45,176 nucleotides of DNA from Escherichia phage vB_EcoS-22664BS2. The translations under genes were made by a program, and so were the position numbers. Where the stretch lies: sequence record NC_073324.1; one strand, given 5' to 3'. Under the pieces are notes generated by a model. The model ran no database searches. It had not been told where the DNA came from and was given only the letters and a program-made list of their open reading frames with translations. Below are positions 1,487 through 43,447 of this stretch, piece after piece (positions within the stretch are counted from its first letter, which is position 1; each line of letters starts with the position of its first letter).

Positions 1487-1687
1487 ATGGGCAACGTATC
1501 GACGATAGAAATAACCGAAGAACTCGAAGTTAAATGTATCGCATCAGCTATAATAGGGAATGGTTCGGTGGAAAAACTACAGATGAGGGCTGCTGCGGGC
1601 TACATACGCAGGGCTAATAGCGCGCAGACTGATGTTTTACGTAAACGTTACCTCGTGAAAGCGTTAGAAATACTGGAGAATAACTAA
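1487..1687 (+). CDS. hypothetical protein
   Basis: ORF track; GAGAGAAATG RBS and start. Confidence 0.5.
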   Translation: MGNVSTIEITEELEVKCIASAIIGNGSVEKLQMRAAAGYIRRANSAQTDVLRKRYLVKALEILENN

Positions 1688-1836
1688 TGAAAATCACAGA
1701 TATCGAAGCATTCAAAGACGCGCAACTGATGGCGCGCATCGCAGTTAGTAACCTGAGCAACAGCATTCCAGCGGACGCGTTCTGGTTCGCTGCGATGCAG
1801 ACACTTAAAGCAGCTTATGCAGGAGAGAAGAAATGA
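1687..1836 (+). CDS. hypothetical small protein (49 aa)
   Basis: Read by eye; TAATG and ATGA overlaps couple it to both neighbours. Confidence 0.35.
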   Translation: MKITDIEAFKDAQLMARIAVSNLSNSIPADAFWFAAMQTLKAAYAGEKK

Positions 1837-2030
1837 AAGTTAAAGCCGCTAAAATTCTCTGGTTAGCCGCCCTTGACTATGTGACAGAGGGTAAAGTGTA
1901 CGATGTGTACAACCCGACAGCTACTGGTTTCGGTTATATAGACTCCGACGACGACTGCTGTATTTTCATAGACTTTGGTAACGATGAAGGTGATGGCTTC
2001 CACGGCGTTAAATGGGAGATTGTAGAATGA
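1833..2030 (+). CDS. hypothetical protein
   Basis: ORF track; translationally coupled. Confidence 0.5.
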   Translation: MKVKAAKILWLAALDYVTEGKVYDVYNPTATGFGYIDSDDDCCIFIDFGNDEGDGFHGVKWEIVE

Positions 2031-2185
2031 GCGAACAAGGTCAAGTAAGCCAACCACTACGGGTAGGCCGTAAAGTCAGCCACACCCCGTTCCCGACACG
2101 CGAGGAACTGATGAAACGTAACAGTTTCCCTGGGCCGGACAAGAACAAGTATCTCAATCGCATGTGGGGAGAGCGTAAAGTATGA
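2027..2185 (+). CDS. hypothetical small protein (52 aa)
   Basis: Read by eye; ATGA overlaps at both ends. Confidence 0.35.
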   Translation: MSEQGQVSQPLRVGRKVSHTPFPTREELMKRNSFPGPDKNKYLNRMWGERKV

Positions 2186-2406
2186 CTAATAACGAATATG
2201 AAAAAGCATGCGTCGAATCCGCGACCGGTGAATCTGAAATAGCGTGGATTGACACCCACATCGAACACCACTTACGGCAGGTGGATAATCTTATGGAACG
2301 CCGCCGTGAGCTGATTAGCCGCTTCAACATGAACAAGGAGCGCGCTATTTCTGACGATTTCGATGGGGATTACCGAAATGGCGATTTTTATGAGGGAGCC
2401 GAATAA
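2182..2406 (+). CDS. hypothetical protein
   Basis: ORF track. Confidence 0.5.
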   Translation: MTNNEYEKACVESATGESEIAWIDTHIEHHLRQVDNLMERRRELISRFNMNKERAISDDFDGDYRNGDFYEGAE

Positions 2407-2696
2407 TGCCTAAAATCACAATCGCGTCACTTGAGCGTCGTATTCTGGTCCTTGAGTCAGAGAAACAGACGTTAGGCGGGCAACTGTCAATTAACGGTGA
2501 GTTTCAACTGGAGGCGTTTAAGGAGTTACTGGCTATTAAGACGCAAGAACCGAACGTGTACGCGGGGTTGTTCGTCGGTGAAGACAGTTCTTCGCTGGCT
2601 TATTACAACACGGCAACCGCAGCTTCAAAGGATGGGGCTGATGTGATAATCCCGCTGTACGACAATGTTGTCGGACCAGAAGATGAAAGCGCCTGA
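2406..2696 (+). CDS. hypothetical protein
   Basis: ORF track; TAATG overlap with upstream gene. Confidence 0.5.
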   Translation: MPKITIASLERRILVLESEKQTLGGQLSINGEFQLEAFKELLAIKTQEPNVYAGLFVGEDSSSLAYYNTATAASKDGADVIIPLYDNVVGPEDESA

Positions 2697-2865
2697 ACCG
2701 GTAGTTATTGATGGCGTCCTGTGGAAACCATACTCGGTTAACCACATCGACGCCGACGGGAAGAAGTTCAGCTTCTACATTTTTGCAATTAGCCGTGAGC
2801 ATGCTGCCTGTGTGGTCGATGATATACGAGAAACGGCGTGGCTCGGTGATGAGATAGTGGGGTAA
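2665..2865 (+). CDS. hypothetical protein (start may be ATG at 2683)
   Basis: ORF track; overlaps upstream gene. Confidence 0.4.
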   Translation: MLSDQKMKAPEPVVIDGVLWKPYSVNHIDADGKKFSFYIFAISREHAACVVDDIRETAWLGDEIVG

Positions 2866-2869
2866 GAGT

Positions 2870-2953
2870 ATGAGTCTTGAGGTTGTTATTGGCCTGGTCG
2901 GTCTTAGTTACTTCATCGGACTATTGGTTGGGTTTCTGTGGGGCAGATACTAA
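2870..2953 (+). CDS. tiny hydrophobic peptide (27 aa, one TM)
   Basis: Read by eye; MSLEVVIGLVGLSYFIGLLVGFLWGRY; stop overlaps next ATG. Confidence 0.25.
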   Translation: MSLEVVIGLVGLSYFIGLLVGFLWGRY

Positions 2954-3123
2954 TGTCCAGTGACATCAACGCAGCAATCGAAGAGGCAATCTGGCGACGC
3001 TACAACGGCGAGCAGCAACGGCACTTCTGCCTGGTGCAACGCGGCAACATGGTCGCCGTAGTGCAGGACCGCGATAACAAATATCCGAATGCGATGTGGA
3101 CGACGAGGAATTTCTTAGGATGA
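2953..3123 (+). CDS. hypothetical protein
   Basis: ATG at codon 6 of track ORF 2938..3123. Confidence 0.45.
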   Translation: MSSDINAAIEEAIWRRYNGEQQRHFCLVQRGNMVAVVQDRDNKYPNAMWTTRNFLG

Positions 3124-3801: not shown

Positions 3802-4311
3802 ATGAAGCTGAAACTTAAGCAGCCATCGCCAGAGGTGGTACAAGCTGCACATGAAGAAGCTGTTAGCGCAAACCGTCGCCGTAAACGACCGCGCGGTAAA
3901 CAGAGCCTTTATCAATCATCCCGTAATTCCGCCGCGTTGTGGGACCCGGGCTATTGCGATGCACTAATCGAGTTCTTCGACCGCACGTCGTGGGAGCTTG
4001 TGCCTACGTCTAAGGGTGACGAACGCCCGCTGATTCAGGATAAACCACCGTCACTGGCCCGCTTCGCCTTACACATCGGAGTCACTATCCCGATTATTAA
4101 GCTTTGGCTGCGTGAGATTCCCGCATTTGCAGAAGCCTGGGAGACAGCACAGGCGCTGGAAGAGGCATACTTCACTGAAACGGGGGCCGCAGGCATCTCT
4201 GCTACGTTTGCTGCCGCGAAACTGGGCCTGAATAAAACAGTTGTCGCCGAAGAAGTACGCGACGAGCCAATCAGCGAAGTAACAATTAAGGTGGTGTCCG
4301 GTGAACGTTAA
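3802..4311 (+). CDS. terminase small subunit (putative)
   Basis: Immediately upstream of and overlapping the large terminase; HTH-like segment; AGGGGA RBS before ATG 3802 (codon 14 of track ORF). Confidence 0.55.
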   Translation: MKLKLKQPSPEVVQAAHEEAVSANRRRKRPRGKQSLYQSSRNSAALWDPGYCDALIEFFDRTSWELVPTSKGDERPLIQDKPPSLARFALHIGVTIPIIKLWLREIPAFAEAWETAQALEEAYFTETGAAGISATFAAAKLGLNKTVVAEEVRDEPISEVTIKVVSGER

Positions 4312-5572
4312 TATCACGGCAACGGAGCCGCAAGGCGCGTTTCTCGGTATGCATTGCAAGTTTCCGGCATTCGTAGCTGGCTTCGGTACGGGTAAATCCG
4401 AAGTTATGTGCAACTCTGCACTACTCGACAGCATGGAAGGTGGTAGCGATTCTATCATCGCCATGTATGAGCCGACTTATGACCTGGTGCGCCTCATCCT
4501 TGCACCGCGTATGGAAGAAAAGCTCACCGACTGGGGTATCCGGTACAAATACAACAAGTCTGACAACATAATCTATACGTCTTCCGGACAATTTGGGGAT
4601 TTTGTTCTGCGTACACTTGATAATCCAGCACGAATCGTTGGCTACGAATCGTTTCGTGCGAAAATCGACGAGTTGGACACCCTTAACATGGAGCACGCCG
4701 AGCACGCGTGGAACAAAGTCATCGCCCGTAACCGCCAGTTGCCGCGGACATATAAACCTATTACACCGAAACCTGCTAATACCGTTTCCGTGTTCACTAC
4801 CCCGGAAGGATTCCGTTTCGTACATGACCGCTGGGTAGTCAAAAAGAATCCAGGCTACGAGATGATTCAGGCGTCCACCCTGTCTAACCCGTTCCTGCCA
4901 GAAGATTATGTGCAGTCGTTACGCGACACATACCCAGGTCAGTTGATTGACGCCTACATCAACGGCGAGTTCGTCAACCTGACGGCGGGGACTGTCTATT
5001 ACGCCTATGACCGCAGGAAAAACAGCAGCCGCGAAACAATAAAACCAGGCGAGACTCTGTATATCGGGCAGGACTTTAACGTAGGCCACATGGCTAGTAC
5101 AGTTTACGTGCAACGTGGCAAAGTCTGGCATGCAGTCGCCGAGTTGGTGGATATGTTCGATACGCCCGATGTGGTGAGAGCCGTAACAGAGCGCTGGAAA
5201 AGTAAGGGCCACTATATCGTTATGTACCCCGACGCAAGCGGTAAAAACCGTAAAAGTAACAACGCCAGCACATCTGATATTGCCCAGTTACAGCAGGCCG
5301 GCTTCGAAGTGCGCGCTAAATCGACAAACCCACCGGTTAAAGACCGCGTAGCGGCGATGAATAAGGCGCTTGAATCTGGTATGGTCATGATTAATGAACA
5401 GGCCTGCCCAGTTACGGCGCGATGCCTGGAACAGCAAGCCTACGACAAGAACGGCGAACCGGATAAATCCGGGGGCGTGGACCACCAGAATGATGGAACC
5501 ACATACCCTATCGCGTATGAAATGCCGATTCGCAAACCAGTTATTAACGTCCCGGTGACTTTCGCACTTTAA
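4301..5572 (+). CDS. terminase large subunit
   Basis: Walker A GFGTGKS near N-terminus, size and position before portal; GTG start with AAGGTGG RBS. Confidence 0.85.
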   Translation: MNVNITATEPQGAFLGMHCKFPAFVAGFGTGKSEVMCNSALLDSMEGGSDSIIAMYEPTYDLVRLILAPRMEEKLTDWGIRYKYNKSDNIIYTSSGQFGDFVLRTLDNPARIVGYESFRAKIDELDTLNMEHAEHAWNKVIARNRQLPRTYKPITPKPANTVSVFTTPEGFRFVHDRWVVKKNPGYEMIQASTLSNPFLPEDYVQSLRDTYPGQLIDAYINGEFVNLTAGTVYYAYDRRKNSSRETIKPGETLYIGQDFNVGHMASTVYVQRGKVWHAVAELVDMFDTPDVVRAVTERWKSKGHYIVMYPDASGKNRKSNNASTSDIAQLQQAGFEVRAKSTNPPVKDRVAAMNKALESGMVMINEQACPVTARCLEQQAYDKNGEPDKSGGVDHQNDGTTYPIAYEMPIRKPVINVPVTFAL

Positions 5573-5584
5573 GAGGATTATTCA

Positions 5585-7063
5585 ATGTTAACTATGAACG
5601 GTCAGAATCAGGGTGTTAAGACAAAACACCGGGAATGGCTGCATCACTTCAATAAATGGCAGAAGGTACGCCACGCTCTGGAGGGCGACCTTATTCGTTA
5701 TCTGCGCAATGTCGGAAAGAACGAACCTGACCCTACCTACGCGGAACAGCGCCAGGAAGAATATGAGAACGGCGCTATTTGCTACAACTTCACTAAACGC
5801 ACCCTGGCCGGGATGGTTGGTAGCGTCATGCGCAAAGACCCTGAGCAAATTATTCCTCCTGAGCTTGAGTACTTGTTACGTAACGCCGATGGTTCAGGTG
5901 TCGGGCTGTGGCAGCACGCGCAGGACACGCTAATGGAAATCGATTCTGTGGGCCGTGGTGGGTTGCTGGTCGACGCCCCGGAGACAGCTGCGGCAACGGC
6001 AGCCGAACAGAACGCGGGATTATTAAACCCGGTCATCGCATTCTACACCGCGGAGAACATCATCAACTGGCGACTGACACGCATCGGATCCGTTAACCGC
6101 GTGACGATGGTCGTGTTGCGTGAGGTATGGGAATACTCAGAACCTGGCGCAGAGTTCGAAACAAAGTTCGGCGAGCAATATCGTGTCCTCGACCTGATTG
6201 AAGGCCGTTACCGCCAGCGCATTTACCGCTTCGATGCCGAAGGTGGCGCTCAGGATGAAGTAATCGAAATCTTCCCGGAACTCGGCGAACAGTTACGCGG
6301 CAAAATCCCGTTCACGTTCATTGGGGCGAGCAACAACGACGCCACTATAGATGATGCACCTTTGCTGCCGTTGGCCGAGCTAAATATCGGACATTTCCGA
6401 AACAGCGCGGACAATGAGGAGTCCAGCTTCGTTGTAGGTCAGCCCACGCTGTTCATCGCCCCGGGCGAGAACATGAGCATGGAACAGTGGAAAGAAGCCA
6501 ACCCACACGGCGTGCGCATGGGGTCGCGTTCAGGCCATAACATTGGTTACGGCGGTAATGCGTTTCTGGTTCAGGCAGGAGAGAACAACCTTGCCAAGCA
6601 GAACATGCTGGATAAAGAGAATCAGGCCATCCAGATTGGTGCGCAGCTTATCACCCCGACGCAGCAAATCACCGCTGAATCGGCCCGTCTACAACGCGGT
6701 GCTGATACGTCCGTTATGGCAACAATCGCACGTAACGTAAGCATGGCGTATACCAATGCGTTGCGCTGGGTAGCGGCGATGCTGGGGCTGCGTGAAGGCA
6801 CAGAGATTGAGTTCAAGCTGAATATGGAGTTCTTCCTGCAACCAATGACCGCTCAGGAACGCGCTCAGTGGATGGCGGATATTAACGCTGGCCTGTTACC
6901 GGCTACCGCTTACTACGCTGCGTTGCGCAAGGCGGGGATAACTGACTGGACTGACGAGGACATTCAGAACGCTATTGAGGACGCGCCGCTGCCGTTAGGT
7001 GCTGTTGCTCAGGTAGCAGGAGAGATTCCGCAGTCGGCACAGCAGGAAGCGCTGCCTGCGTAA
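5585..7063 (+). CDS. portal protein
   Basis: 492 aa, directly after terminase and before head morphogenesis protein. Confidence 0.8.
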   Translation: MLTMNGQNQGVKTKHREWLHHFNKWQKVRHALEGDLIRYLRNVGKNEPDPTYAEQRQEEYENGAICYNFTKRTLAGMVGSVMRKDPEQIIPPELEYLLRNADGSGVGLWQHAQDTLMEIDSVGRGGLLVDAPETAAATAAEQNAGLLNPVIAFYTAENIINWRLTRIGSVNRVTMVVLREVWEYSEPGAEFETKFGEQYRVLDLIEGRYRQRIYRFDAEGGAQDEVIEIFPELGEQLRGKIPFTFIGASNNDATIDDAPLLPLAELNIGHFRNSADNEESSFVVGQPTLFIAPGENMSMEQWKEANPHGVRMGSRSGHNIGYGGNAFLVQAGENNLAKQNMLDKENQAIQIGAQLITPTQQITAESARLQRGADTSVMATIARNVSMAYTNALRWVAAMLGLREGTEIEFKLNMEFFLQPMTAQERAQWMADINAGLLPATAYYAALRKAGITDWTDEDIQNAIEDAPLPLGAVAQVAGEIPQSAQQEALPA

Positions 7064-7085: not shown

Positions 7086-7110
7086 AAGGCCCCATAAGGG
7101 GCCTTTTTAT
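7086..7110. terminator. terminator between portal (+) and a minus-strand small gene
   Basis: GGCCCC-ATAA-GGGGCC hairpin followed by TTTTT; sits between convergent genes. Confidence 0.6.
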
Positions 7111-7392
7111 CTATACAAATGTAAATCCAGTGCTGGTAGCGGTGTAACTGGTGGCGCCGTTTTTCGTTTCGGGCCAACAGATATACGAGCGCCCGCGATA
7201 CTCTACCCACCAAAGTTCCACATCGGAGTCCCCGTTAGGTCTAGTCAACCACCCGTGGTGTAGCCAATACTTGCGCCCTATTTTAAATATATCTTCTTCA
7301 CTGGAAGTCCACTCCTGAGCGACACACTCTACCTGAACGCTATCAACACATACACATGTAAGATATAAATCACTGTTTGAATATTTAGCCAT
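7111..7392 (-). CDS. hypothetical protein (93 aa), moron-like insert in head module
   Basis: Internal ATG at codon 37 of track ORF; own promoter and RBS; opposite orientation to flanking structural genes. Confidence 0.5.
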   Translation of the reverse strand: MAKYSNSDLYLTCVCVDSVQVECVAQEWTSSEEDIFKIGRKYWLHHGWLTRPNGDSDVELWWVEYRGRSYICWPETKNGATSYTATSTGFTFV

Positions 7393-7427
7393 TTCTAAAT
7401 TCCTTATCTCTCGTTTCGATGCAATGA

Positions 7428-7456
7428 ATAGTACCCTATTATGTTGGTGTCTGCAA
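7428..7456 (-). promoter_or_regulatory. sigma70-like promoter (TTGCAG-N17-TACTAT) for 7111..7392
   Basis: Read on minus strand; member of the conserved promoter family. Confidence 0.5.
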
Positions 7457-7500
7457 ATATTATTTTTATGCGTTACACTGGCGATACCACAGGAGGGCAT

Positions 7501-8544
7501 ATGAGCTTACTTACATCGCTAATCAGCCACCAGATATGGCTGCAACGCACCGCATCAGGTGAAGTGAAAGACCTCGCACCGTTCATTCAGGAAATGCGAG
7601 ACGAAATCAAACGGCAGGTGCTGTTATTCGGCGACGACGGGCGAAGCACAGCGCGGCTGAATAAACTGTTACGCGACCTTGAAGAAGCACTGACCGGACT
7701 TACGGGCGACTGGCGGACAAAGCTGACAGAAGACCTTAAGGAACTTGCCGCGTATGAGGCCGAGTGGAATGCAAAGACACTGACGACTAACGTTAACGCG
7801 GAATTTGTTACGCCTACCGCTGAACAGGTGTGGGCCGCCGCCGAGTTTCAACCGCTCTCACTGAGCGACAAACCAGTTGATTTCACCAAGCTGATGTCAG
7901 GCTGGGGTGAAACCGAAGTCGCGCGCCTGGTAACCGGCGTTAAGATGGGTTTTGTACAAGGTCAGACCACACGGCAGATTGTCAAAGAAGTGGTCGGTAA
8001 AGGTGGGCTGGCTGACGTATCAGAGAAATATGCAGCTACAGTAATCCGTACCGCGCTGTCTCACGTATCAAACGAAGCCCGTAACGAGACGTACCGCCAG
8101 AACGACGACATCATTGAGAAATACGAATGGGTGTCGACGCTGGATAGCCGTACCAGTACGATTTGCAGAGCCAGAGATGGAATGACGTGGGCGATTGGAA
8201 AAGGGCCGATGCCCCCAGCACATCCGAACTGTCGAAGTACCACTGCGCCGGTAATCAGTTCAGAGTTCGACTTCCTCGATAAAGGCGCAAAACGAGCGGC
8301 TAAGGGCGCGGACGGCGGTACTCAGGTAAGCGCGGACACCACCTATTACGAGTTCCTTAAACAACAACCGGCATGGTTCGTGGATGAAGCACTCGGCCCG
8401 GTGCGAGGTAAGATTTTCCGTAACAGCGGTATATCGCCGGAAGAGTTTCGCGTAATATCTGTAGATGGTTTCGGGCGTCCGCTGACTATTAAAGAGATGG
8501 CGGAACTCGATAAACGTGTTGCTGATTATCTGAAAGAGGTTTAG
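7501..8544 (+). CDS. head morphogenesis protein (Mu F / SPP1 gp7-like)
   Basis: ATG with AGGAGGG RBS (codon 21 of track ORF); conserved PAHPNCRS segment; follows portal. Confidence 0.75.
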   Translation: MSLLTSLISHQIWLQRTASGEVKDLAPFIQEMRDEIKRQVLLFGDDGRSTARLNKLLRDLEEALTGLTGDWRTKLTEDLKELAAYEAEWNAKTLTTNVNAEFVTPTAEQVWAAAEFQPLSLSDKPVDFTKLMSGWGETEVARLVTGVKMGFVQGQTTRQIVKEVVGKGGLADVSEKYAATVIRTALSHVSNEARNETYRQNDDIIEKYEWVSTLDSRTSTICRARDGMTWAIGKGPMPPAHPNCRSTTAPVISSEFDFLDKGAKRAAKGADGGTQVSADTTYYEFLKQQPAWFVDEALGPVRGKIFRNSGISPEEFRVISVDGFGRPLTIKEMAELDKRVADYLKEV

Positions 8545-8547
8545 TTT

Positions 8548-9006
8548 ATGGGCTTTTTCAAAGTAACTGATGTACCTTCGCGTCGCGTAGTCCAGTACGC
8601 CCGCGTGTCTGGCTCTGGTGAGAACGTGGTGTTTATTGAAGACGAAAGTGTACTTGGTACACCAGTAGACGATATGCCGTTTGCAGACAAGACTGGCATT
8701 GCGCTACCAGCGGCGGGTATGCTTTATGAAATCCCGTATCTGGCTGACGCAGGCGATGTGTATTTCTCTGTACAACCGCAGGACGTTGAACTGGCAGATG
8801 GCAGCGCAACTATCACTGTCGAAGTTAAGGCGGGTAAATCCCCCTATGCACTGGCCTGGTACAAAGACGGCAAGGAAGTAGTAAACGCGCCCGAAGAGGC
8901 TTTGTCTCTGACGGTTAACGCGGTCGGTGAATACTTCGTTAAAGTTACCGATGCTGATGGTGTAGAGGCTGTCAGTAAAGCTGCGAAGGTCACTAAGCCC
9001 GAATGA
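8548..9006 (+). CDS. Ig-like domain protein (possible head decoration protein)
   Basis: C-terminal I-set-like segment ALAWYKDGKEV...GEYFVKVTDADG. Confidence 0.45.
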   Translation: MGFFKVTDVPSRRVVQYARVSGSGENVVFIEDESVLGTPVDDMPFADKTGIALPAAGMLYEIPYLADAGDVYFSVQPQDVELADGSATITVEVKAGKSPYALAWYKDGKEVVNAPEEALSLTVNAVGEYFVKVTDADGVEAVSKAAKVTKPE

Positions 9007-9007
9007 T

Positions 9008-9036
9008 AAAAGGCCCCATTAAGGGGCCTTAGTTTT
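9008..9036. terminator. bidirectional terminator between convergent genes
   Basis: AAAGGCCCC...GGGGCCTT hairpin with T/A runs on both sides. Confidence 0.6.
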
Positions 9037-9239
9037 CAACGGAATCTTGTGTTTAAATCCTGCTCGTGGACGACCCTCAGAACAGTGTCATAATCCCCGT
9101 ATCTTCCAGGTTCAAATATATCTAATGCCTTGTAAGCAGACATTGCGTCAGGGAAAACCTGCAGAACCTTTTTAACACGGCACAAGTCACCGTCGAACTC
9201 TTCATCGAACTCTTGAACTACTTCGCAAATTGCATACAT
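9036..9239 (-). CDS. hypothetical protein (67 aa), moron-like
   Basis: ORF track; own promoter, GGAGGTG RBS and terminator. Confidence 0.5.
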   Translation of the reverse strand: MYAICEVVQEFDEEFDGDLCRVKKVLQVFPDAMSAYKALDIFEPGRYGDYDTVLRVVHEQDLNTRFR

Positions 9240-9266
9240 TTTTCACCTCCTGCTTAAGTTAACTGA

Positions 9267-9295
9267 ATAGTACCCTATTATATTGGGGTGCGCAA
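9267..9295 (-). promoter_or_regulatory. sigma70-like promoter (TTGCGC-N17-TACTAT) for 9036..9239
   Basis: Conserved promoter family. Confidence 0.5.
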
Positions 9296-9361
9296 ACTAT
9301 TTATTCGACTATTCCAGTTATTCCGCTCAATTGTAAATGTTGGAATAAACTATTCGAATAG

Positions 9362-9390
9362 TTGACTTTTCACTGAAAATGTGCTAAGCT
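9362..9390 (+). promoter_or_regulatory. sigma70-like promoter with extended -10 (TTGACT-N17-TGcTAAGCT) driving ncRNA candidate 1
   Basis: Same promoter architecture repeated at 41851-41879. Confidence 0.5.
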
Positions 9391-9393
9391 CCA

Positions 9394-9597
9394 CCTGAGC
9401 TTGTGAAGTATGAACAAGCGACCGCGGCGCGGGCAGGTAACGGAGCGGGACGTAAGTCCTGAGTGTAGTTACGCTGACGCGTTCGGAAGGGCCATAGTCT
9501 ATTGCTTGTGTAAAAAGTAACTGGTTTACTGAGATTACGCCGTTTCTATGTTTAAATGATAAGGACTAGCGCCCCGCTTTATGGCGGGGCTTTACTT
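9394..9597 (+). ncRNA. candidate structured non-coding RNA, copy 1
   Basis: Promoter upstream and hairpin plus T-run terminator at 9569-9597; first 38 nt identical to 41883-41920, rest aligns with indels. Confidence 0.4.
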
Positions 9598-9614
9598 ATC
9601 GAGAAAGGAGAAAC

Positions 9615-16354: not shown

Positions 16355-16380
16355 AAGGCCCCTTTCGGGGCCTTTTTCTT
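16355..16380. terminator. bidirectional terminator
   Basis: AAGGCCCC-TTTC-GGGGCCTT hairpin plus T-run, between convergent genes. Confidence 0.6.
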
Positions 16381-16933
16381 ACAAACCTAATTTTAAAGCA
16401 ATGTCTATAACGTTCGATTTAACGTCACCCGGTATGATGTAGGTGTCGTAATCTTTTACACCACTAACATCGTACAGATAGCCACGGCTATCGCAGATGA
16501 ACGTATAGCCGTCACGATGGAGGCGGACGATTCGCACGTCATGCCCCGCGGCGACGATAGGGGCAACTTCACTGGCGAATCCACCATCGGACACTACAAA
16601 AACTTCGTCGCCGTCAGGCAAGTTTTCAGCAAGATACTTACCGAAATAATCATCGCCGAATACCGGTTTAATGAATTGCTCAGAAATGGCAATCATTAAC
16701 CGGCGGCGGGACAACCCATTAAGAAAACCCTCGGGTTTTTCTTTCCGCGCCCGGTCGTCGTAGCCGTCGAGAAATTCGTGGTAAGCATCCTGGCCTAACG
16801 CTGCCAAAGCAATATTGAACATTGGATTCTTGAAACTGGTAGTTCCTTTCGCAAAGCCCATTTCTACCAGCGCCATAGCAAGCGTGTCTTTCCCGCAACC
16901 CGCAGGGCCATTAAGAATAATTACCTTAGCCAT
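16379..16933 (-). CDS. P-loop nucleotide kinase, dNMP-kinase-like
   Basis: Walker A GPAGCGKDT and overall layout resemble T4-type deoxynucleoside monophosphate kinase. Confidence 0.55.
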   Translation of the reverse strand: MAKVIILNGPAGCGKDTLAMALVEMGFAKGTTSFKNPMFNIALAALGQDAYHEFLDGYDDRARKEKPEGFLNGLSRRRLMIAISEQFIKPVFGDDYFGKYLAENLPDGDEVFVVSDGGFASEVAPIVAAGHDVRIVRLHRDGYTFICDSRGYLYDVSGVKDYDTYIIPGDVKSNVIDIALKLGL

Positions 16934-17421
16934 TATTTATCGCTCCCGTGTGGTTTTAAGTGTGTAGAGTTCCCGTTACAGTCGTATTCGGTAACTGCGT
17001 GTGCGGTTATGCCGAGGTCACGGAAATGCTTTATTACCGCTGGAGAGTCGTCGAACGCACACAAGATTCTTTCCAGTCCGAAAGCACGCAACACCTCTTC
17101 TTTAATTACGATGTCTTTTCTGTTGTCGTGTTTGCTGCGCATGATTAGCGTGTCAAACCTAACGTTATTCTCTCGTAACCATTCGCGAGTCTCCTCCTCA
17201 GCGTCATCACTTCGCCCGGTAAGGATAATTATAGTAAGTCCGGAATGCCACAGTACGCTACACAAATGGATATTGTCGTATATCGGAGCGTCATCTTTGC
17301 AGGCCATGTTAAATGGCTTCCACGCCCACGTTTCTCCGTAGTTATCTTTTGGTAACAGGTGTAAGCGATGGGTACCGTCGGCCAATGTCCCGTCTAAATC
17401 GAAAATTACAATATCTTTCAT
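16933..17421 (-). CDS. HAD-superfamily phosphatase (nucleotidase or 3'-phosphatase-like)
   Basis: N-terminal FDLDGTL motif (DxDGT); small capless HAD. Confidence 0.6.
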   Translation of the reverse strand: MKDIVIFDLDGTLADGTHRLHLLPKDNYGETWAWKPFNMACKDDAPIYDNIHLCSVLWHSGLTIIILTGRSDDAEEETREWLRENNVRFDTLIMRSKHDNRKDIVIKEEVLRAFGLERILCAFDDSPAVIKHFRDLGITAHAVTEYDCNGNSTHLKPHGSDK

Positions 17422-18548
17422 CCCAGCATCTCCGGTGAAATAGTTAAACGTGCGACCTCGCCATATTCGGCGCTATAAGTAATTACATTTGCACTGCGGC
17501 CCGACATCCATCCGCCGCGAGAGGCGTAGGCGTCTTTAGCCGCTAAGGTGCGGTGTTGCTCAACAATCATGTTACGGCTTTCTACAATCTTCTGGTGGTG
17601 CAGATGGCCTACGTGGGCGTAGCTGTAAACACTCTCGCCGAACGCTTTACGGAACTTGGCAATCATAACCGGTTCGATAGCGTCGAATCGTGCTTTATGC
17701 CCGTGATGGAAGAACAGCGTCGTTTTGCCGTGTTGCACCATCTTGTAAACATCCGGCGACGTATCAACAATCACTCGGCTGTCGTTTGAGTATAAAACCG
17801 TGAACATTTCGGCAAGCCATACGGAGCCAACAGGGTCGTGGTTACCTTGAACGATTAAAAGTTTTACTGTGTGATGCTTAACCAGCGCCATATCAACAAC
17901 ACGGCGGACCATACGAATCATGTAACGTACCAGTTTCTGATAGCGAGTATCCGCATCTAATACATGGCGCGACTCGGGGGTAACGGCATCAAGACTATCG
18001 AAGTGTGCGAAGTCCCCAAGCAGGTTAATAACTCCTGTTCCTGCATCCGGTGCTTTCTGAAACGCCGCGTCGAACCACCGAGAGAACAGGTCTTCTGCAA
18101 TCTTCATGTCCCAGTCGTCGCCGCTCTCATCGGCCCATGCCAGCATACCGAGATGGAAATCAGATACAGTGTAAAGATTGAGTAGCTTGTCGTCACGTTT
18201 GGCGCGCGCCGCTTTAACAGGCGCAACGGGCGTAATCTCTGACTTCATGCCCTCTATTACGGCTTTCATCAATTCAACCTGACGTTCGGCGTCGGTATCA
18301 GTCTTAACCCATTGCAACTTAGTGTTGCCGAACTCGTCCACAAGTGACGACGTTCCTTTAATCTTGTAGCCGTCTGGCACAAGGTGGCTAACGTCGCGCC
18401 CGTGGCCCACGCCTTTCTTAGCCAGCTTCGCTTTACGGATACGAATTACGCGGTCTGAGATGCCGTATTTACGGGCGATATCTACATTCTTCATACCGGC
18501 GTTCAATTCTTCCTGCAACTGTTCGTCGGTTATTTTCTTCCGGGCCAT
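17418..18548 (-). CDS. metallophosphoesterase with N-terminal HTH domain
   Basis: Calcineurin-like motifs DFH, GDFAHFD, GNHD, HHGH, GHLHH; N-terminal segment NVDIARKYGISDRVIRIRK is HTH-like. Confidence 0.6.
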   Translation of the reverse strand: MARKKITDEQLQEELNAGMKNVDIARKYGISDRVIRIRKAKLAKKGVGHGRDVSHLVPDGYKIKGTSSLVDEFGNTKLQWVKTDTDAERQVELMKAVIEGMKSEITPVAPVKAARAKRDDKLLNLYTVSDFHLGMLAWADESGDDWDMKIAEDLFSRWFDAAFQKAPDAGTGVINLLGDFAHFDSLDAVTPESRHVLDADTRYQKLVRYMIRMVRRVVDMALVKHHTVKLLIVQGNHDPVGSVWLAEMFTVLYSNDSRVIVDTSPDVYKMVQHGKTTLFFHHGHKARFDAIEPVMIAKFRKAFGESVYSYAHVGHLHHQKIVESRNMIVEQHRTLAAKDAYASRGGWMSGRSANVITYSAEYGEVARLTISPEMLG

Positions 18549-18585
18549 GTTTATTCCTCGTGCTTAGGATTTGTCCTATACTAGC

Positions 18586-18777
18586 TCACTTCTCTTTGAC
18601 ATTCGAGTTGCAAGCCCAGATTAAAATAAATACCCACGGCAGCAGAACCCATCCAAGAAACAGATTAGCCATGAATATCGCTAATTTCGCTTTATGGTCG
18701 CGCATATGCGCCACGAGAAATGGAATAAAATAAACTAAAACGATAATGATTAAGAAGAACATAGTAATACCCGTCAT
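18586..18777 (-). CDS. small membrane protein, superinfection-immunity-like
   Basis: ATG at codon 47 of track ORF; two TM segments; NLFLGWVLLPWVFILIWA resembles the Imm family signature (from memory). Confidence 0.4.
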   Translation of the reverse strand: MTGITMFFLIIIVLVYFIPFLVAHMRDHKAKLAIFMANLFLGWVLLPWVFILIWACNSNVKEK

Positions 18778-18818
18778 GGTGTAGCTCCTGTTTGGGATAA
18801 CATCGTTGGTGTAAGTGA

Positions 18819-18847
18819 ATAGTACACTATTATATTGGGGTGTGCAA
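18819..18847 (-). promoter_or_regulatory. sigma70-like promoter (TTGCAC-N17-TACTAT) for the minus-strand cassette
   Basis: Conserved promoter family. Confidence 0.5.
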
Positions 18848-26916: not shown

Positions 26917-28902
26917 ATGTCAAGCGGATGCGGTGACGTTTTAAGCCTGGCGGATTTACAAACCGTCAAGAAACACCAAATTTTTGAAGCCGAGGTTATC
27001 ACCGGTAAATCCGGCGGGGTTGCTGGTGGCGCCGATATTGATTACGCGACCAACCCTGTTACCGGGCAGACCCAGAAGACGCTTCCTGCTGTGTTGCGTG
27101 ATGCCGGTTTTTCTCCCGTATCGTGGGACTTTTCCACCGGCGGTACGTTAACAGTTAATGGCCGCGACAAAGTGGTGTATGACCCCGTAAGCAAGACGTG
27201 GTACTCATATGCGGGTACGTTGCCGGTTGTTGTTCCCGCGAGTTTTAATCCAGTCGGTAACGCTAACTGGAAGCCGCAGACAGACCCAAATTTGCGTAAT
27301 GATTTGGCGTCAAGTACCGCCGGTTTAGGGGCTTCACTGGTGTCTTTTTCCAACGGTAACACCGTTGAAACATTATCTGACGCGGAAGGTGCCAAGAACA
27401 TAGGCAGTGGCGAAAGGAGTTTGCTTGCACGTAACAATGATATTAAGCATTCTGGCGACTTTTCTACCCTTCAAGCCGCGGTAGATGCGTCGTTAACTAA
27501 AAACGACTTAATTGTTTCTCCGGGTGAGTATACAGAAGCAATCACTCTGGGTAGTAAGCAGATAAAAGGTGTAGGTGGTGCTGCAATATTAAAACCATCG
27601 GCAAACTATGCAAATACTGTACAGGTTAATTTATCCACCCCGCACTGGCAGTTTCGACACAGCGGTGGTTTTGCCGTAGATGGTACAGGTACAACTGGGG
27701 CCGTAGGTATTAGTTTTGACCCGTCAGACCAATATTCCGGACGTCATAATTTTAGTGATTTATACATCCACAACATCAACAAGGCCATTCAGAAGCCTTC
27801 CGGGAACATCGGTAATACATGGAGAAATATTGGGGTATCTACGTGTGATTGGGGGTATTACGCGATTAGTGGCTCAGAGATGCATTGCGGGGCCGATACC
27901 CTCTACAATATCCACTTCGACGGCATCTCCACCTATGCCGTCTACCTAAACGGCACTGTCGATAACGGCGGGATAGGCGGATGGTGGCTTAAAGACTCCA
28001 TTATTGAGGCTTCCGGAGGCGGCGGGATATATTTAAAAAGCAAATCAGGTGACTGCCCTACATCTCCATGCGGGGTATCCAATGTATGGACGGAAGCGAT
28101 TGCAACATCATCGGCTGTTCAGGTAGACGGCGTGGCGCAAAAACCGCGAGTTCTCAAGTTGGTAGACACCGCGATATTCTTTGCTGAGTATTCTTATCTC
28201 AACAACATCGAGCTATCCAACTCCAACTTAGTAACTTATGGTTGCCGTTTTGACAACGCCGATGGTAATCAGGATATTGTAGTGGATGCACAAAGCACCA
28301 TCGTAGCCCACGACGTGTATTTAAACGGCAGCTCTGGAAAGGACGTTATTGTAGAGTCTGTCGCGTCGCAATCCGCAACGATAGCCACTACAAACTTGTC
28401 TCTACGAGGAAATTTAACAAGGGGACGAGTGTTTAATACGCCTACGGGGAATAAGTTAAAAGCTATCACATTTGACTCAGGTAGCCATAATTTTTCTGGT
28501 AGCGGTACCGTTAACGGTTCGACTGTATCTGACGGACTTCACGCCGCTACATGTACCGAATTTTCATTCCCTGGGTCCGGTTTATATGAAATGGTAGCGT
28601 CAAGAACGACACTTACATCCGGTAGATGGTACGTGTGGGGCGTCAACTCTCGCCTCCAATCAGGAACAGCAGATGTGAGTATAACGTCAGGTATTACTAT
28701 GGGTAGCGTTTATACTAAGTCTGGTGAGTGGATTAGCACATTTGGGGTGGGTAAAGCTTCCGCTAACGGTACTGTAGGTCTGTACGTCTCTACTGGGGGA
28801 GGTTCAGGTGCTGTTATCAGATTTAGTGACTTCTTCATCGCTGAGTTTACGACGCAGGCTCAGGCTTTAGCTTTCGCTAACTCCCGAATGTCGTTGGCTT
28901 AA
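26917..28902 (+). CDS. tailspike / tail fibre receptor-binding protein
   Basis: 661 aa; N-terminal anchor-like domain then Gly/Asn/Ser/Thr-rich repeats suggesting a beta-helix; last tail gene. Confidence 0.6.
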   Translation: MSSGCGDVLSLADLQTVKKHQIFEAEVITGKSGGVAGGADIDYATNPVTGQTQKTLPAVLRDAGFSPVSWDFSTGGTLTVNGRDKVVYDPVSKTWYSYAGTLPVVVPASFNPVGNANWKPQTDPNLRNDLASSTAGLGASLVSFSNGNTVETLSDAEGAKNIGSGERSLLARNNDIKHSGDFSTLQAAVDASLTKNDLIVSPGEYTEAITLGSKQIKGVGGAAILKPSANYANTVQVNLSTPHWQFRHSGGFAVDGTGTTGAVGISFDPSDQYSGRHNFSDLYIHNINKAIQKPSGNIGNTWRNIGVSTCDWGYYAISGSEMHCGADTLYNIHFDGISTYAVYLNGTVDNGGIGGWWLKDSIIEASGGGGIYLKSKSGDCPTSPCGVSNVWTEAIATSSAVQVDGVAQKPRVLKLVDTAIFFAEYSYLNNIELSNSNLVTYGCRFDNADGNQDIVVDAQSTIVAHDVYLNGSSGKDVIVESVASQSATIATTNLSLRGNLTRGRVFNTPTGNKLKAITFDSGSHNFSGSGTVNGSTVSDGLHAATCTEFSFPGSGLYEMVASRTTLTSGRWYVWGVNSRLQSGTADVSITSGITMGSVYTKSGEWISTFGVGKASANGTVGLYVSTGGGSGAVIRFSDFFIAEFTTQAQALAFANSRMSLA

Positions 28903-28905
28903 AAC

Positions 28906-28932
28906 TAAGGCCCCAAACGGGGCCTTTTCTCT
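28906..28932 (+). terminator. intrinsic terminator after tailspike
   Basis: AGGCCCC-AAAC-GGGGCCT hairpin plus TTTT. Confidence 0.6.
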
Positions 28933-29068
28933 ACTCTTCTGATAACTTCTCCAGTACAAACGCCAGTTGCGCATTAGCGGCGTCTCTTTGCTGACGTAGC
29001 CGCAGAACCTCTTCTTCGAGTTCCTTGATACGTTTTTGCAATGCCGGAATTGGGGCTATGATGTTCAT
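28931..29068 (-). CDS. small coiled-coil peptide (45 aa)
   Basis: Read by eye; ATGA-type overlap with upstream stop; MNIIAPIPALQKRIKELEEEVLRLRQQ. Confidence 0.25.
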   Translation of the reverse strand: MNIIAPIPALQKRIKELEEEVLRLRQQRDAANAQLAFVLEKLSEE

Positions 29069-29580
29069 CTGGTAAATTTCCTCGCAAGATACGTTATTTC
29101 TTCTTCACAAAGTTCATCAAGGTCGTTAGATACAAATCCTCTGGTGAATGTTTTGCTGAACTTTAATCCAGCTTTATCATTGTCGCCAGCGCACACCCAG
29201 TCATACGGCAAAAGTGACATTTGCTGCCGTAGGTCTGTTGATATATTTGACCCCAGTGCGCTTACAGCATTGAACCCGCAATTCATCAAGGCTACGGCTT
29301 TGAATATGCTTTCGGTAACAAATACCACCCCGCTTTCCGGCAAATACTCAAGCCCCCATAAACACGGCCTTGTTGTTCTGGTAAAGTACCGCGCGTCTTT
29401 AGGGTTTTTACAGTTCTTTTCGGCATGTGGTTTGTAATGCTGGTATCCGCGAAGCCTACCGTCAAACCCCCACAGGTAAAACGTAGCTACTCCAGGGGCT
29501 AAGACTACCTGGAGACGGTCAGCGTCAAACCCACGCGCCAGCAGATGAGCTTTAAGTAGAAACTCTTCGAAATCCATCAT
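29065..29580 (-). CDS. TOPRIM-domain protein (primase catalytic-domain-like)
   Basis: VFVTESIFKA (Glu) and VCAGDNDKAG (DxD) TOPRIM signatures. Confidence 0.5.
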   Translation of the reverse strand: MMDFEEFLLKAHLLARGFDADRLQVVLAPGVATFYLWGFDGRLRGYQHYKPHAEKNCKNPKDARYFTRTTRPCLWGLEYLPESGVVFVTESIFKAVALMNCGFNAVSALGSNISTDLRQQMSLLPYDWVCAGDNDKAGLKFSKTFTRGFVSNDLDELCEEEITYLARKFTR

Positions 29581-38232: not shown

Positions 38233-38260
38233 ATCCGCCCCTCTCGTTTGGTATGGGCTA

Positions 38261-38289
38261 ACTATAATAGCGAACTATTCACATGTCAA
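38261..38289 (-). promoter_or_regulatory. sigma70-like promoter (TTGACA-N17-TATAGT)
   Basis: Consensus elements; divergent from the XRE gene promoter. Confidence 0.5.
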
Positions 38290-38293
38290 TGGG

Positions 38294-38322
38294 CTTTTCT
38301 AAAATAATTAATATGGTACTAT
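38294..38322 (+). promoter_or_regulatory. extended -10 promoter (TGgTACTAT) for XRE regulator
   Basis: TGn plus TACTAT; weak -35. Confidence 0.45.
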
Positions 38323-38353
38323 TCACATATCAACTGACTAAGGAGTAATTGAC

Positions 38354-38569
38354 ATGCAACCATCTGAACTAGGTATCCGTGTAGAACAACGCCGTAAAGA
38401 ACTCGGCATCTCCCAGCGCCGTTTGGCGGCCCTGACCGGCGTTTCCCAGGGCGCGATTAACCAACTGGCACTTGGAGTAACTCAGGACGTCCGCCCGGCA
38501 ACGCTGTTCAAACTGGCGGAAGTTCTGGAAGTAGACGCCAAGTGGCTGGCGTTAGGTGAAGGGGCTTAA
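38354..38569 (+). CDS. XRE-family HTH transcriptional regulator (Cro/CI-like)
   Basis: ELGISQRRLAALTGVSQGAINQL helix-turn-helix signature. Confidence 0.65.
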   Translation: MQPSELGIRVEQRRKELGISQRRLAALTGVSQGAINQLALGVTQDVRPATLFKLAEVLEVDAKWLALGEGA

Positions 38570-42147: not shown

Positions 42148-42176
42148 TTGCACACCCCAACATAATAGGATACTAT
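42148..42176 (+). promoter_or_regulatory. sigma70-like promoter (TTGCAC-N17-TACTAT) for early operon
   Basis: Conserved promoter family; leader ATCGAAACGAGACAGAGGAG. Confidence 0.55.
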
Positions 42177-43418: not shown

Positions 43419-43447
43419 TTGCACGCTGAGATGGAATAGGCTACTAT
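43419..43447 (+). promoter_or_regulatory. sigma70-like promoter (TTGCAC-N17-TACTAT)
   Basis: Conserved promoter family; leader ACGAGAGGAGAGACAGAG. Confidence 0.5.

Follow-up and report, generated by a model that had tools for sequence, protein, structure and literature searches.

A reverse-oriented accessory gene in the head-gene block of Escherichia phage vB_EcoS-22664BS2 as probable cargo of one of two cassette bays

Why is a short minus-strand gene, apparently equipped with transcription signals of its own, lodged among the plus-strand head genes of Escherichia phage vB_EcoS-22664BS2, and what might it do for the phage? The stretch of DNA analysed here (the window) is 45,176 nucleotides long (NC_073324.1) and belongs to a siphovirus of E. 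coli that is Kagunavirus-like (Guernseyvirinae), with a genome of about 45 kb. Coliphages of the Kagunavirus group are common candidates for therapy. An original prediction had described positions 7111-7456 as a moron, a gene inserted in the structural operon and transcribed independently of it, and had suggested that such inserts often serve superinfection exclusion or anti-defence.

Organization of the reverse-oriented unit

The locus and its surroundings contain the following features:

4301-5572, plus strand: large terminase gene
5585-7063, plus strand: portal gene, left border of bay 1 (PF13264 DUF4055; phrog_145 at 1e-149)
7086-7105, both strands: hairpin resembling a two-way intrinsic terminator, AAGGCCCC-ATAA-GGGGCCTT, with an 8-bp stem (6 G-C) and T-rich tails on both strands
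7111-7392, minus strand: coding sequence of ORF93, 93 aa plus stop (ATG at 7392, stop at 7111-7113)
7393-7424, minus strand: 5' leader of ORF93 including its ribosome-binding site (RBS), with a predicted transcription start at about 7421
7425-7456, minus strand: promoter-like element upstream of ORF93 (-35 TTGCAG 7456-7451, 17-nt spacer, -10 TACTAT 7433-7428)
7501-8544, plus strand: head-morphogenesis gene of the Mu F / SPP1 gp7 type, right border of bay 1 (PF04233 Phage_Mu_F; phrog_241 at 8e-152)
8548-9006, plus strand: Hoc-like gene

The predicted 93-aa frame on the minus strand between two plus-strand head genes was thus recovered (7392 to 7111, between portal and head morphogenesis), and the span 7111-7456 extends exactly from the stop codon through the -35 hexamer. 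The RBS of ORF93, AAGGAA (7405-7400), lies 7 nt 5' of the ATG, and that of the head-morphogenesis gene is GGAGGG at 7492-7497, the start site of the latter being judged from annotated starts in relatives. A longer reading of 129 aa from an ATG at 7500 was rejected: every homologue has 93 aa, and the DNA upstream of 7392 is either common to unrelated cargos or different between the copies of ORF93 found in bay 1 and bay 2 (see below).

Homologues of ORF93 fall into five clusters, all of 93 aa. Among seven Kagunavirus-type copies dN/dS is 0.16-0.32, and ORF93 is therefore protein-coding and under purifying selection. The frame is short and has no family match, as might be expected if it were open by chance and the real feature were just a regulatory spacer of promoter and terminator. 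This can be given next to no weight, because synonymous change far outweighs non-synonymous change (dN 0.14 at a dS of up to 0.73), the reading frame is kept across two phage genera, the RBS is conserved and the protein has a fold that is predicted with confidence. The GC content of the unit is 0.42-0.45, as against 0.53-0.58 in its flanks. No flanking direct or inverted repeats and no transposon-like ends were detected around the unit, and Rfam and tRNA scans of the window returned zero matches.

The promoter-like element belongs to a repeat family of 32 nt, TTGCACACCCCAAYATAATAGGGTACTATTCA, reading -35 TTGCAC, 17-nt spacer and -10 TACTAT. Four full copies, each with at most 2 mismatches, occur in the window (0 expected by chance), at 7425, 9264 and 18816 on the minus strand and at 42148 on the plus strand, and a fifth, weaker one lies at 43419. 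An RBS and an ATG follow each copy after 25-45 nt. The ORF93 copy matches the sigma-70 consensus at just 7-8 of 12 positions, which explains why a generic sigma-70 scan missed it; its membership in the family was shown by the repeat analysis. The same motif had been found with PHIRE in phage fBC-Eco01 (PMC9825357). The other full copies precede the 67-aa ORF of a sister unit, a block of Imm-like, exonuclease, polynucleotide kinase and dNMP kinase genes, and an array of small ORFs. 'Early family' is therefore a reasonable label, and the conserved-family promoter of the original prediction is confirmed as a repeat, with an early timing that we infer from the genes served. The leader of ORF93 is conserved in its bay-1 and bay-2 copies, RBS included, and the promoter copy at 42148 has a leader related to it, ATCGAAACGAGA.

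Within the element lies a palindromic core, AATAG-N4-CTATT (7427-7440 in the ORF93 copy), of which the window contains 9 copies (0.01 expected). The study of fBC-Eco01 took the motif for the promoter of a 'phage-encoded RNA polymerase' (PMC9825357). That reading was unsupported here, since none of the ten replication-region ORFs scanned, the largest non-structural ones included, matched an RNA polymerase. At 38260-38569 of the window, two copies of the AATAG-N4-CTATT type lie in a divergent intergenic region immediately before the gene for a 71-aa HTH regulator (38354-38569; phrog_4/phrog_8). The HTH protein is a candidate autoregulated repressor of the whole promoter family. Given the lack of an RNA polymerase match in the ten ORFs and the HTH gene behind two palindromes, the most economical reading of the element would be a host-polymerase promoter combined with a phage operator. 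The host sigma-70 RNA polymerase would read the ORF93 promoter early in infection, and the promoter may later be shut off through AATAG-N4-CTATT, possibly by the 71-aa regulator.

At the other end of the unit, the hairpin at 7086-7105 is predicted to end transcription of the portal gene on the plus strand as well as of the ORF93 unit on the minus strand. It scores as terminator-like on both strands, in agreement with the bidirectional terminator proposed initially. The window contains exactly four hairpins of the form AAGGCCCC-loop-GGGGCCTT, at 7086, 9010, 16355 and 28907, where 0 are expected by chance, and three of them close the three minus-strand units begun by the conserved promoter, namely that of ORF93 and the following two:

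9010-9295, minus strand: sister unit in bay 2, between the Hoc-like and spanin genes (terminator 9010-9030, 67-aa ORF 9239-9036, promoter 9264-9295)
16355-18847, minus strand: third unit of the same build (terminator 16355-16374, promoter 18816-18847)

The third unit encodes a dNMP kinase, a polynucleotide kinase, a DNA-repair exonuclease and an Imm-like protein (phrog_1039, 2e-26); this reverse-oriented block, too, sits inside the structural region. The product of the 67-aa ORF is acidic (pI 4.5) with a weak PHROG match (phrog_27256), and the ORF is also found in bay 2 of three relatives (L021, L024 and L051). The remaining hairpin (28907-28926) separates the end of a plus-strand ORF of 661 aa (26917-28902) from replication genes on the minus strand, the first of them primase-like (29065-29580), and is presumably another two-way terminator.

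Between the bay-2 promoter and the spanin-like gene, about 320 nt (window 9296-9614) are without an ORF of at least 40 aa. They hold a plus-strand sigma-70-like element, TTGACT-17-TAAGCT (about 9363-9391), and, at about 9570-9594, a strong hairpin that has a T-run. The region has no Rfam match and an RNA fold z-score of just -2.1; it may encode a non-coding RNA (about 190 nt) or serve as a long leader.

Two bays with a common pool of cargos

A probe of 1.7 kb across the ORF93 site has matches in 353 phage records, the best of them being 88% identical. Among the IMG/VR relatives with both anchor genes (48 in total), the gap between the portal and head-morphogenesis genes is 65-100 nt, i.e. empty, in 25 and occupied in 23; it measures 437 nt in the window, as against 65-72 nt in 26 loci. 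The head genes on either side are 90-98% identical in close relatives, about half of which have an empty site. Golestan is one relative in which the site is empty. ORF93 itself is rare: it was found in none of 51 IMG/VR loci and in four GenBank Kagunavirus records, against the 353 that match the flanking genes, plus a few Logan assemblies. It is hence no conserved core gene with a structural role, the finding by which the original prediction would have been refuted.

A role in head assembly or structure, for instance as a chaperone or decoration protein, could be suspected from position alone, between the portal and head-morphogenesis genes. We regard it as excluded for practical purposes: about half of the relatives with nearly identical head genes have nothing at the site, ORF93 is opposite in orientation with an early-type promoter, and its homologues lie beside lysis genes in two relatives (contig L062 and phage EP-B-K_E2) and in early-gene arrays in Wifcevirus. 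ORF93 would be dispensable for virion assembly.

Occupied sites carry at least 15 unrelated cargo families, and every plausible cargo lies on the minus strand. They include a KilA-N-like protein of 216/217 aa in Salmonella-phage relatives, an N6/N4 DNA methyltransferase (1.7e-28) and, in one locus (L038), the pair of a DpdA-type queuine-tRNA-ribosyltransferase-like protein (244 aa; phrog_887, 2.9e-84) and a YhhQ/Vut_1-like transporter (154 aa). This pair, at about 1527-3001 of IMG/VR UViG_3300045988_039442, suggests a 7-deazaguanine DNA modification. A 173-aa cargo has just matches below threshold, to the central domain of the beta clamp (PF02767, E 0.006) and to phrog_3007. It occurs in bay 1 of L003 and L004 and in 8 bay-2 loci, and its GenBank labels conflict ('RusA-like resolvase' and 'DNA polymerase III sliding clamp'). 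The other bay-1 cargos are small unknowns of 40-139 aa.

One of these records, L003 (OR594180.1, vB_EcoM_SHAK7693), is assigned to Autographiviridae/Kayfunavirus in the GenBank taxonomy under a name that implies a myovirus. Its terminase/portal/head-morphogenesis region is about 89% identical to the Kagunavirus-like window, and the record is therefore probably mislabelled.

What the occupied sites share is the equipment around the cargo. A promoter segment of about 78 nt is common to all occupied Escherichia-type sites, and in 11 loci with different cargos it stands at a fixed distance from the ATG of the head-morphogenesis gene. The ORF93 leader, through the ATG, is reused before a different cargo in phiWAO78-1. 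In that phage (L002, 1555-2444) and a relative (L017), the bay-1 insert of about 890 nt is split into several minus-strand ORFs of 36-102 aa; it could consist of several tiny genes or of one gene disrupted by frameshifts.

The homologue of ORF93 in L062 and EP-B-K_E2 is located in bay 2, between the Hoc-like and spanin genes, and not beside the portal gene. Aligned copies from the two bays resemble each other over the span bounded by the -35 hexamer and the terminator; promoter and 5'UTR are the same, the terminators belong to one type, and the flanks are dissimilar and specific to each bay. The bay-2 gap is short (320-346 nt) in 18 of 47 loci and reaches up to 1120 nt in the rest. Five cargo families, namely ORF93, the 173-aa protein, the DNA methyltransferase, a 94-aa and a 57-aa protein, are found in both bays, in different genomes. 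The two bays thus flank the pair of head-morphogenesis and Hoc-like genes and hold a common pool of unrelated minus-strand cargos. On these sequence comparisons, ORF93 is very probably an accessory gene carried as the cargo of a self-contained promoter-leader-ORF-terminator unit in one of the two bays. The moron reading is upheld by the patchy presence of the gene, the conserved promoter-like element and predicted terminator, the lower GC content and the change of position between bays.

Cassettes would pass between co-infecting phages, and from one bay to the other, by homologous recombination, with the promoter/leader repeats (about 30-50 nt) and the terminator repeats (about 20 nt) as recombination sites. 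We infer that homologous exchange at these repeats is the simplest mechanism for the distribution of the cargos.

Morons, PeSL cassettes and hotspots

A classical moron is expressed from a prophage to the advantage of the lysogen. ORF93 resembles the morons of lambdoid phages (Juhala, Hendrix and colleagues) in being an extra gene between genes that are adjacent in close relatives, with a promoter-like element, a predicted terminator and a base composition unlike that of its flanks. It differs from the classical ones in that its promoter is a phage-wide repeated element and not a private one. The phage group is described as virulent, with no lysogeny genes reported (PMC9825357, PMC7203180).

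A further parallel is offered by the PeSL (promoter-early stem-loop) cassettes of the T4-type phages phi1 and RB49 (Arbiol et al. 2010, PMC2839356). There, non-essential ORFans are bordered by early promoters, which are sigma-70-like and repeated, and by terminators of stem-loop form. PeSLs lie where close relatives differ by insertion, deletion or replacement and are also found in virion modules and next to hoc; their shuffling by homologous exchange between co-infecting genomes was proposed by Arbiol et al. (PMC2839356). Similarly, the sigma-70-like promoter motif is spread over the genome in the window, the motifs border indels and replacements between relatives, and the same cargos appear at different repeat-bounded sites. 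The PeSL is, however, one compact motif of about 100 bp, made of a promoter and a G/C-rich stem-loop before each gene, with about 50 per genome (PMC2839356). In the phage studied here, the promoter is placed at one end of the unit and the G/C hairpin at the other, about 320 nt away, the promoter itself holding a weak A/T palindrome of 5 bp; there are two or three bays per genome; and the phage is a siphovirus of about 45 kb from a different family. Judged by its sequence context, ORF93 may be considered a genuine moron in a PeSL-like cassette-shuffling system.

The bays also recall the P2/P4 hotspots and the hyperplastic regions of T-even phages, where mutually exclusive and unrelated small genes occupy fixed positions, and some of the cargos are of the counter-restriction type known from anti-defence hotspots (the DNA methyltransferase, and the DpdA-like protein with its transporter). 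They differ from those hotspots in being situated among the head genes of a virulent siphovirus, with their cargos antisense to the structural operon, and in that a standard promoter and terminator serve each cargo. Phenomena such as morons, hyperplastic hotspots and shuffling by way of promoters and terminators are already known, and the promoter motif has been reported for the genus. The two-bay cassette pool, the sharing of a gene between Kagunavirus and Wifcevirus and, tentatively, a fold link to Gp54 of phage Bas11 are new here.

The ORF93 protein and its possible role

Outside the Kagunaviruses, tblastn revealed homologues with 34-42% identity (about 100 aa) in 19 of 29 records of Wifcevirus myophages, where they do not form stand-alone units and are embedded in extended arrays of small hypothetical genes. 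Across the two genera, about 24 residues are invariant. An exhaustive profile search of 1.84 billion representative proteins returned two clusters and one fragment of the ORF93 family and no other members, and no homologues were found in complete E. coli genomes (DNA search) or in plasmids (protein search). With homologues in these two phage groups alone, ORF93 represents a family of ORFans that is restricted to virulent coliphages from two groups unrelated to each other. The phages that carry it share O-antigen-bearing E. coli hosts (PMC11990801).

The protein has a mass of 10.8 kDa, a pI of 4.97, six tryptophans and a GRAVY of -0.41. Its maximum Kyte-Doolittle average over 19 residues is 1.07, and there is no hydrophobic segment, signal sequence or lipobox; in the absence of a hydrophobic segment, the protein is taken to be soluble and cytoplasmic. 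Scans of ORF93 and all its homologues against Pfam, PHROGs, NCBIfam and PADLOC gave zero matches. AlphaFold, run on an alignment of 15 sequences, produced a model with a pLDDT of 83.7 and a pTM of 0.74 (an earlier AF2 run with 6 close sequences had a pLDDT of 53 and was unusable). The model comprises a short N-terminal helix, six strands and a long loop at residues 27-40. ORF93 is a soluble, acidic, tryptophan-rich protein, all-beta in prediction, which may adopt a six-stranded beta-barrel. A free-standing homing endonuclease was considered and rejected: there is no Pfam or PHROG nuclease match (HNH, GIY-YIG, LAGLIDADG or similar), and the all-beta model contains no beta-beta-alpha-metal fold.

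Foldseek searches of BFVD and the PDB gave no significant match for the model and did not retrieve 9AXB. The latter is the structure of Gp54 of phage Bas11 (PF25180), a protein that acts as second trigger of CapRel-SJ46, a toxin-antitoxin defence (Zhang et al. 2024, PMC11578894), and to which a resemblance of the predicted fold is conceivable. ORF93 is 13% identical to Gp54 in sequence and 27 residues longer, with an N-terminal helix. The hhalign comparison of ORF93 with the Gp54 family had a probability of 0.17, which is no homology signal, and aligned just IFKIG with IFKKG, immediately before beta2 in both proteins; PF25180 was not detected at E<=10 in a Pfam scan of all 15 members of the ORF93 family. 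As sequence corroboration is lacking, ORF93 is not placed in the Gp54 family, and a resemblance of fold is the most that we propose. The CapRel study left open what Gp54 does for its phage (PMC11578894), so the resemblance transfers no function to ORF93. Close homologues of Gp54 do not activate CapRel-SJ46.

Residues 26-31 are the most variable in ORF93 (pN/pS 0.76, against 0.26 elsewhere). They lie in the loop that would match the beta1-beta2 loop of Gp54, and their variability fits an interaction surface without proving positive selection: the ratio is below 1, and relaxed constraint explains it as well as diversifying selection does.

With respect to function, the two roles offered by the original prediction fared differently. 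Counter-defence is plausible by association, with methyltransferase and DpdA-like genes in the same bays, and superinfection exclusion is unlikely. An exclusion protein made early to block DNA entry or adsorption of competitors, in the manner of T4 Imm and Sp, T5 Llp or Sie, would suit what appears to be a separately transcribed, early-type accessory gene of a virulent phage, and the Imm-like gene opens the third unit, which has the same promoter. Known exclusion proteins of the Imm, Sp, Llp and Sie types are, however, membrane proteins or lipoproteins. ORF93, soluble in character and without a transmembrane segment, signal sequence or lipobox, matches no exclusion family in PHROGs or Pfam, which makes classical exclusion highly improbable.

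It may also be asked whether ORF93 is of any use to the phage. A neutral or selfish ORFan, kept just by the cassette system that moves it, would agree with the rarity of the gene, the absence of a recognisable domain and the fact that a cassette mechanism can spread any cargo. We consider such a passenger improbable in view of the purifying selection noted above, the constant length of 93 aa, the residues that are invariant across two genera at 34-42% identity and the retention of ORF93 in most Wifcevirus records (19 of 29).

The most likely role, to which we would give about one chance in three, is that of an early accessory protein that binds a component of the host or of its defences. It is suggested by the methyltransferase and DpdA-type neighbours, the horizontal spread and the Gp54-like predicted fold. 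The association with such neighbours is weak guidance, since most bay cargos are unknowns and one common cargo is KilA-N-like. In this role the product of ORF93 would use the long variable beta1-beta2 loop to bind a protein of the host, with a target in defence or takeover as the most likely one. Taken as a whole, an explanation of ORF93 as a swappable cassette cargo, expressed from an early promoter as a soluble host-binding barrel and exchanged by recombination, is the one we favour, with moderate confidence.

Taken alone, ORF93 would be an ordinary phage moron, and it is the context that is useful. The two 'plug-in' sites in the head-gene block provide a compact and tractable list of candidate host-interaction genes, and the cassette is a natural promoter/terminator chassis for payloads that would leave virion genes undisturbed. 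If the predicted fold link to Gp54 is true, ORF93 and its Wifcevirus homologues may help to reveal the benefit of the barrel to phages. A bolder combination, which we hold to be rather unlikely, would make the bays an integron-like counter-defence library on a standard early promoter and terminator, and ORF93 and Gp54 members of a wider superfamily of six-stranded beta-barrels traded among unrelated coliphages, with a hypervariable beta1-beta2 loop engaging immune proteins. The members of such a superfamily would inhibit one defence system at the risk of detection by another, such as CapRel, and the approximately 15 unknown bay cargos of such a library would be a candidate list for new anti-defence proteins.

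A last observation concerns the remaining matches of the profile search, which were set aside as repeat proteins matching at motif level, their significance arising just from the summing of repeats. The profile of ORF93 residues 24-57, approximately, picks blades of beta-propeller lectins of the PLL/tectonin type ('dGrLevF..G...LwHxWQtxPN', e.g. PDB 6t96), a likeness that is probably due to a convergent beta-hairpin motif.
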